A stretch of DNA of 64,000 nt from a virus. Its lineage: Duplodnaviria > Heunggongvirae > Uroviricota > Caudoviricetes. The notes under the pieces are model-generated. The model was not told the origin of the DNA. It saw only the letters and a program-made list of their open reading frames with translations, and did not search any database. Below, piece by piece: positions 7,772 through 8,835 of this stretch (position 1 is its first letter; the number at the start of each line of letters is the position of its first letter). The stretch lies in IMG/VR virus record IMGVR_UViG_2563366960_000002. One strand, given 5' to 3'. The position numbers were made by a program, and so were the translations under genes.

Positions 7772-7901
7772 TCATTTCAGCGATTACAGGGTCCACTACA
7801 GCATCTGTTTCCTGTTTATTACGCGGCATGACCGATGCCAGCGACTCATAATTAACCTTGGATGACACGATTATTCTCCCGATGTTAAAGTGCACTACCA
7901 C
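7713..7901 (-). CDS. small hypothetical protein
   Basis: 62-aa ORF between operon genes; weak support. Confidence 0.25.
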   Translation of the reverse strand: MVVHFNIGRIIVSSKVNYESLASVMPRNKQETDAVVDPVIAEMNARLEAEFAAENEHTTQGD

Positions 7902-7934
7902 AAAGATCGTATATGCACTAATTAATTTATTATT

Positions 7935-8513
7935 TTAAGCAGCATGCAACCACTTATCGTCGTTCAATACATGCTCAATAGCCTCACCCTTTTTAAGGCT
8001 TATGTATTCCAGGATGGCGGTAATCGCTTGTTCTGCACCATACGCAAGAACAACGTAGTAGCCTTCCTCTCTAAGCCTGCGCATCCAGGCGATCTGCTCT
8101 TTCGTCGGGGCTTTACCATTTGGTTCTTTAAGCTCAATTCGCATGCCGTGATAAATACCGCATGCTTTATCGAGACTCATGTCCGGATAACCTTTTTTCT
8201 GCCCTTCAGCCTTCATTTTCCCGGCGGTTGCTTTTGAACGCTTCCCTCCGTTAGGCGTTGCATGCAACAGCTCATAAATTTCAGGGTAATTGCGCTCGAA
8301 GTAATCAAAAATGAAAACCTGTTCGTAGTGCTCGCAATTTCCTACTCGCAGATCAGGATTTTTTGCCAGTGCTGCAAGCGCCTTCGCATGTGGCGAAACT
8401 TCTTTTACCGGGGCAAGTGATAAGAACGGATCCTTTTTGGGCTTTGGCTTAACCCATCCTTTCTGTCTGCGCTTACTGAAAGCCAGATACTCTTGCTCAG
8501 TAAAGCGCAACAC
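7935..8513 (-). CDS. VRR-NUC domain nuclease
   Basis: 192-aa ORF; KGYPDMSL...GMRIELKEP...EQIAWMRRLREEGYYVVLAYG fits the VRR-NUC / PD-(D/E)xK pattern. Confidence 0.55.
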   Translation of the reverse strand: MLRFTEQEYLAFSKRRQKGWVKPKPKKDPFLSLAPVKEVSPHAKALAALAKNPDLRVGNCEHYEQVFIFDYFERNYPEIYELLHATPNGGKRSKATAGKMKAEGQKKGYPDMSLDKACGIYHGMRIELKEPNGKAPTKEQIAWMRRLREEGYYVVLAYGAEQAITAILEYISLKKGEAIEHVLNDDKWLHAA

Positions 8514-8515
8514 AA

Positions 8516-8761
8516 TCAGTCAAATCCTGCCGGTCGCATGCCATATTTACGCTGTTTTGCGGCCTGCTCTTCCCTGTGCCATTGCGCACATTCAGCGTCA
8601 CAATAAATGCCTGATTCAATCGATTCATTGCAGTAACGACACTTCCCTGTAAATACCTGGCTCACGACCTGTGCCTGCTTTCTGATGTTATCGATGGCCA
8701 TGTCTTTGAGAGCTTCTAACTGATTCATGCTCAGCTCTGCATCATCAACACGTTCTGCCAA
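8516..8761 (-). CDS. TraR/DksA-like C4 zinc-finger protein
   Basis: 81-aa ORF with CRYCNESIESGIYCDAECAQWHR motif. Confidence 0.45.
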   Translation of the reverse strand: MAERVDDAELSMNQLEALKDMAIDNIRKQAQVVSQVFTGKCRYCNESIESGIYCDAECAQWHREEQAAKQRKYGMRPAGFD

Positions 8762-8818
8762 TTTTGTTTCCTCGTGAAGAACCTACTTAAGGGCAGAATG
8801 ATACATTTCACAATCAAA

Positions 8819-8835
8819 ATTGCACTAATAATTTT
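8819..8835 (+). promoter_or_regulatory. operator-like element ATTGCACTAATAATTTT (15/17 to C1 consensus; TGCACTA core)
   Basis: Direct read in divergent intergenic region upstream of the plus-strand module starting 8908; may be a C1 site or a different (late) promoter element. Confidence 0.4.

Follow-up and report, generated by a model that had tools for sequence, protein, structure and literature searches.

Which protein recognises the TGCACTA-core elements on either side of pmgL and pmgM in this P1-like phage-plasmid: the C1 repressor or an activator of late promoters? The question comes from a sequence-only reading of the window, by which we mean the whole 64-kb stretch of DNA analysed here. 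That reading located the heptamer at 7891-7897 and 7914-7920, and again inside ATTGCACTAATAATTTT at 8819-8835, and proposed that these were either weak C1 sites or a separate promoter class. Its coordinates are exact, the heptamer of ATTGCACTAATAATTTT falling at 8821-8827, and 8819-8835 does lie in a divergent region ahead of the plus-strand structural block, namely the 146 bp that separate pmgL from gene 26. The two neighbouring heptamers had both been assigned to a TATGCACTAATTAATTT element (7912-7928), which is correct for the one at 7914, whereas the one at 7891 lies outside it.

The window follows P1 collinearly over its full length, in reverse orientation (P1 85182 to 26054) and with a few mosaic replacements; its identity over positions 7000-10000 is 97.8% to P1 and 96.1% to P7. 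The c1 gene itself is located outside the 64 kb. Regulatory annotation was taken from GenBank AF234172 for P1 (coordinate conversion, window = L001 + 4499) and from AF503408 for P7. On this annotation 8819-8835 maps exactly onto P1 O26 (formerly Op82) and 7912-7928 exactly onto P1 Oppp (formerly Op83), each labelled as a C1 binding site. The same two sites are the C1 operators Op(26) and Op(hdm) in P7, where their letters match the window, and both 17-mers are orthologous by position to operators annotated in the two reference genomes. We consider it very probable that these TGCACTAAT-containing 17-mers are C1 repressor sites, the orthologues of O26/Op82 and Oppp/Op83; the case is built on their identity with annotated operators, their match to an operator model, their position relative to promoter-like sequences and their conservation. 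The first of the two proposed readings is in this respect borne out, and the alignment to P1 C1 operators and late promoters that had been suggested as a check returned operators Op82 and Op83 with no fit to a late promoter. Because both operators were already annotated, the finding is an ordinary one, known from the existing P1 and P7 records: the P1-like element keeps the P1/P7 set of C1 operators in the pmgL/26 region. A literature search by operator name (Op82, Op83, Oppp) returned unrelated papers only, the primary operator literature lying beyond its reach. The features of the region are collected in Table 1.

Table 1. Features around the two 17-mers, in order of position, and the operator-model matches of the window
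Feature	Position	Strand	Elements and context	Source
pmgN	7713-7868	-		ORF list, P1 annotation
Third TGCACTA heptamer	7891-7897	+	pmgN leader, forms part of a GTGCAC palindrome	
Oppp/Op83 orthologue, probable C1 operator	7912-7928	+	TATGCACTAATTAATTT; between pmgM stop (7935) and pmgN start (7868)	
pmgM	7935-8513	-	PmgM 75% amino-acid identity to JK004_101	ORF list, P1 annotation
PpmgN, predicted sigma-70 promoter	7941-7967	-	-35 7967-7962; -10 7946-7941	P1 annotation
pmgL	8516-8761	-	start 8761	ORF list, P1 annotation
P26, predicted sigma-70 promoter	8519-8547	+	within pmgL	P1 annotation only
P1pmgL, predicted sigma-70 promoter	8798-8825	-	-10 TATCAT 8803-8798; -35 GTGCAA 8825-8820; sequence identical to P1	P1 annotation
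O26/Op82 orthologue, probable C1 operator	8819-8835	+	ATTGCACTAATAATTTT; identical in P1 and P7 Op(26)	
P2pmgL, sigma-70 promoter-like	8831-8858	-	-35 TTGAAA 8858-8853; 16-bp spacer; -10 GAAAAT 8836-8831	promoter scan
LPpmgL, late promoter	8850-8868	-	-22 box common with LP26; directed towards pmgL	P1 annotation
LP26, Lpa-dependent late promoter	8857-8878	+	AAC-AAATGACTA-GCAG-TAAAAT; -22 box 8860-8868; -10 8873-8878	P1 annotation
gene 26 (baseplate)	8908-9285	+	first of tail/baseplate block 26-25-7-24-6-5	ORF list, P1 annotation
Operator sites of at least 19 bits	3055, 5146, 5195, 7912, 8819, 19486, 19497, 23019, 39488, 41171		whole window	20-site PWM

In P1 O26 and P7 Op(26) the letters, the orientation, the location between pmgL and gene 26 and the distance to the -22 box of LP26 and LPpmgL are all the same as for Op82. 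The site itself is identical in P1, whereas four flank differences fall between 8844 and 8875, including the late-promoter -10, which reads TAAAAT in the window and TAGAAT in P1. Op82 is situated just downstream of the start point of the leftward LPpmgL and between the predicted P26 and gene 26. A consensus promoter scan detected a sigma-70 promoter-like match at 8831-8858, where the P1 record predicts P2pmgL; its -10 overlaps the 3' end of Op82. The -35 of P1pmgL sits within Op82, and this promoter was below the threshold of the scan.

Op83 lies within the head of the minus-strand operon formed by pmgL, pmgM and pmgN, which continues into pmgO, pmgP, ppp and pmgQ, and it is placed 13-29 bp downstream of the -10 of the predicted PpmgN. 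This -10 is weak here, and PpmgN was missed by the consensus scan. It reads CATGCT in the window vs TATGCT in P1 (7941-7946, minus strand), and both alleles are common in IMG/VR relatives, which casts doubt on the importance of the predicted promoter. P1 Oppp occupies the same pmgM/pmgN position in the same orientation and shares 16 of its 17 letters with the window; P1 reads CATGCACTAATTAATTT, position 1 being C there and T in the window and P7. The bases directly upstream also differ, GATCGTAT in the window and GAGCGCAC in P1. P7 Op(hdm) is identical to the window site, again in the same place and orientation.

The published C1 operator consensus is ATTGCTCTAATAAATTT, representing about 22 dispersed operators (PMC8546580), and Op82 matches it at 15 of 17 positions. 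The departure from this consensus that had been pointed out earlier, CTC to CAC, is confirmed and amounts to an A for T at operator position 6 (base 8824 in Op82; A6 and T6 below). The P1 record annotates 20 C1 operators, of which 14 have T at position 6 and six have A. Op82 and Op83, both monovalent, account for two of these six. The others are Op2b/Omat (CATGCACTAATAAATAT) at the mat promoter, Op72b/Obanb (ATTACACTAATAAATTT) at the ban promoter, the autoregulatory Op99a/Oc1a (AATGCACTAATAAATCT) at the c1 promoter and the degenerate Op99b. Like Op82 and Op83, Op2b, Op72b and Op99a combine a GCACTAAT or ACACTAAT core with an A/T-rich 3' half; they differ in serving other promoters, and Op72b and Op99a are each half of an overlapping bivalent operator. 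Since A6 is found in six of the 20 annotated operators, GCACTA is a recurrent natural variant within the accepted family, and its annotation at c1 and ban as well is compatible with membership of that family. By comparison with the annotated set, A6 (GCACTA for GCTCTA) is a tolerated operator variant and no mark of a different regulator. It is absent from all 21 operator-like sites of Cronobacter phage JK004, indicating that the variant is lineage-specific and not deeply rooted in the system.

A position weight matrix (PWM) trained on the 20 annotated P1 operators was used to scan the window. Ten sites scored at least 19 bits (Table 1), all of them at P1 operator positions and including both Op82 and Op83, and the next best match reached 13 bits. 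The heptamer alone carries no comparable signal: TGCACTA occurs ten times in the 64-kb window against 6.8 expected, and at least ten occurrences were obtained in 13 of 100 shuffles. In the absence of enrichment any significance must rest in the longer 17-mers, and the heptamer is no meaningful unit. The third heptamer, at 7891, was considered as a degenerate operator and rejected, its surrounding 17-mer AGTGCACTACCACAAAG scoring only 2-3 bits on the operator PWM. The P1 and P7 records carry no annotation at this site, P7 reads TGCGCGCTAT there and thus lacks the heptamer, and in many IMG/VR relatives it is altered, to TGCGCTA or otherwise. Judged from these comparisons it is a chance match that forms part of no element. 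A further TGCACTAAT at 17535-17543 (plus strand) was likewise discarded, as its 3' half misfits the operator. This copy lies in a region without P1 homology and, read on the minus strand, falls in what looks like the coding sequence of a lipoprotein signal peptide (MKKTLISAAIILGSLCLTGC...).

For conservation we sampled 80 IMG/VR loci encoding an identical gp26, of which 76 could be aligned at Op82 and 60 at Op83. Positions 1-11 of Op82, A6 among them, show no variation in the 76 relatives, and singleton changes occur only at positions 12 and 13; four columns directly upstream are variable. Across the intergenic region as a whole the contrast is not significant, with two of 17 variable columns in Op82 vs 22 of 107 in the remainder. 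The conservation of Op82 is consistent with constraint, without proving it. At Op83, T, C and A all occur at position 1, C5 is changed to T in 14 of the 60 relatives and A6 to G in one. The 14 contigs with the C-to-T change at position 5 (homologous to window 7916; ATGTACTAAT) form one P1-like clade among L005-L084. A block of changes also marks their pmgN leader, and in this lineage decay or retuning of Op83 may be under way. Beyond these close relatives, JK004 (ATTATTCTAATAAAAAT) and a Salmonella arizonae plasmid (ATTATTCTAATAAATAT) each carry an operator-like, sub-consensus site at the pmgM/pmgN junction, oriented as in the window.

Late promoters of P1 offer a direct comparison for the second proposed reading. 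All 11 that are annotated align to aAC-AAGTGACTT-N4-TAnnaT, and the Lpa site has been described as a conserved 9-bp inverted repeat common to all 11 (PMC10695390). We built a late-promoter PWM from 22-mers of ten P1 late promoters, nine of which score 19-26 bits. In the window it detects seven sites, all on the plus strand as expected, among them LP26 at 23.9 bits, the box of which is invariant in relatives. LPpmgL is a weak match to this matrix (10.7 bits for the P1 copy). Among 22-mers that overlap Op82, Op83 or the third heptamer, the best scores are 7.1, 6.9 and -1.9 bits, respectively. Op82 and Op83 were tried as Lpa-dependent late promoters and rejected: they do not present the -22 element with TAnnaT that marks these promoters, which have no -35, and their motif is not recurrent before late operons. 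Enrichment upstream of structural operons, which the sequence-only reading had put forward as a check, did not materialise. TGCACTA lies within 150 bp of only three of the 11 P1 late promoters, namely LPmat and the LP26/LPpmgL pair with its one common site, and is an annotated C1 operator in every case; it lies near one of the seven late-promoter-like sites of the window, LP26. In JK004 the gene 26 orthologue (86% amino-acid identity between the gene 26 product and JK004_44) is preceded by a late promoter, AACAAGTGACTCAGCATACAAT, and no operator-like site was found beside it, while the pmgL-side operon carries operator-like sites of its own.

These results bear on the proposal that the TGCACTA-core elements are late-promoter elements or sites for a different activator such as Lpa, forming a separate class upstream of structural operons. 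Although Op82 lies 24 bp from the LP26/LPpmgL pair (8850-8878) in the same intergenic region, and Op2b, the other P1 TGCACTAAT operator outside immC, lies 33 bp upstream of LPmat, proximity is all that Op82 shares with the P1 late promoters (LPs, LPsit, LP23, LP26 and others). These are defined by a AAGTGACTT box and TAnnaT that bear no likeness to TGCACTAAT, and they respond to the Lpa activator and not to the C1 repressor. Both late-promoter regions with an adjacent TGCACTAAT operator do carry the A variant, a coincidence with a chance of about 5/20 x 4/19 = 0.05 that was noted post hoc; yet A6 operators also stand at two promoters that are not late, those of c1 and ban, and eight of the 11 late promoters have no TGCACTA inside 150 bp. 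The Lpa site, moreover, is placed elsewhere by the published inverted repeat, and JK004 separates the two kinds of element. We reject the late-promoter reading because the late-promoter PWM fails at both operators and because JK004 keeps the late promoter without the operator, and regard it as extremely improbable. Two alternatives accept the resemblance to C1 operators and differ on what it means. One holds that one or both 17-mers are functionless, chance AT-rich look-alikes annotated by similarity alone. Against circularity, we rebuilt the operator matrix without Op82 and Op83, prepared a second leave-out matrix from T6 operators only, and computed chance expectations per 64 kb by exact convolution over both strands. 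Op82 scores 23.9 bits on the first (0.0004 chance sites expected) and 21.3 bits on the T6-only matrix (at most 0.004). Op83, with 13 of 17 consensus positions, is the weaker case of the two and drops to 14.7 bits on the strict T6-only matrix, where 0.47 chance sites are expected; its core is altered in the C5-to-T clade, and the promoter upstream of it is predicted only. Even so, it reaches 18.1 bits on the first leave-out matrix (0.05 expected), it occupies one of the few non-coding gaps, and relatives with only 75% identity in PmgM still have an operator-like site in this orientation at this junction. A look-alike origin is judged very improbable.

The other alternative grants C1 binding and supposes that A6 sites form a distinct functional subclass, for example of lower affinity or dependent on Lxc, selected for earlier release or looser repression than T6 sites. 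The invariance of A6 at Op82 in 76 relatives, and its presence at both sites in the window, P1 and P7, would fit this idea; these relatives are 94-99% identical, however, so the invariance of a single base weighs little, and the conservation of Op82 does not rise significantly above that of its flanks. The A6 operators also occur in particular contexts, as bivalent halves (Op72b, Op99a), beside late promoters (Op2b, Op82) or within an operon (Op83), but this pattern comprises five sites and was spotted post hoc. The pmgM/pmgN junction site is sub-consensus in each lineage examined (CATGCAC, TATGCAC, ATGTAC and ATTATTC), whereas A6 itself is missing from the JK004 operators. We consider such a subclass unlikely. 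The more specific version, that Op2b, Op72b, Op82, Op83 and Op99a are a selected C1 affinity subclass of the P1/P7 lineage that might release dual early/late promoters from repression in a graded order, or make them depend more strongly on Lxc, is more doubtful still. Were a subclass of this kind real, it would be of modest interest, and the residual question would be the quantitative one of C1 affinity.

With Op82 and Op83 read as ordinary C1 operators, we infer their occupancy and its transcriptional effect from established P1 biology together with the positions of the sites. In the plasmid prophage one C1 molecule would bind each asymmetric 17-bp site, assisted by the co-repressor Lxc. C1 on Op82 would cover the -35 of P1pmgL and the -10 of P2pmgL and, given also that the site lies downstream of LPpmgL and P26, would shut off outgoing sigma-70 transcription in the pmgL/26 region; it might block early transcription towards gene 26 as well. 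On Op83, downstream of PpmgN and within the pmgL-to-pmgQ operon, C1 would provide another block, or a roadblock, ahead of pmgN, pmgO, pmgP, ppp and pmgQ. Sigma-70 transcription of this operon would thus be stopped by C1 at initiation or during elongation. Inactivation of C1 by Coi or Ant would open these promoters, and late transcription of gene 26 would be driven by Lpa from the separate element at 8857-8878. The gene 26 structural block would in this way be under both repressor and late Lpa control, as already described for P1. A false lead is removed in that there is no second promoter class, and beyond correct annotation the significance is small.

The scan for late promoters also revealed two unannotated matches. 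A strong late-promoter-like sequence, AACAAGTGACTGGTGATAACCT, is located at 10562-10583 on the plus strand, 46 bp into gene 7, and scores 21.0 bits (0.004 chance sites per 64 kb). The identical sequence occurs in P1 (about 76780-76801, minus strand) without a late-promoter annotation. Across 79 IMG/VR relatives both the match and the coding sequence around it are conserved. No counterpart of at least 15 bits on the late-promoter PWM was found in JK004. From its sequence and position this site may serve genes 24, 6 and 5 as an internal late promoter. The weaker match, AACGAGTGAATATCGATAGCAT at 59133-59154 on the plus strand, scores 16.9 bits, a level at which about 0.1-0.4 chance sites are expected per 64 kb, and it is identical and likewise unannotated in P1 near 30921.

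Two further observations concern operators elsewhere. In the P1 record (AF234172, L002) Omat/Op2b is annotated at 2628-2645 as an 18-nt feature on the minus strand, while CATGCACTAATAAATAT reads on the plus strand, which looks like a slip of strand in the GenBank feature. In the window, Op55/Orlf is truncated at 37723-37739 on the minus strand: ATTGCTCTAAT is kept and is followed by CTGGAGT here vs TATAAC in P1. The divergence falls exactly at the P1 homology breakpoint at 37729, placing a mosaic junction inside a C1 operator.
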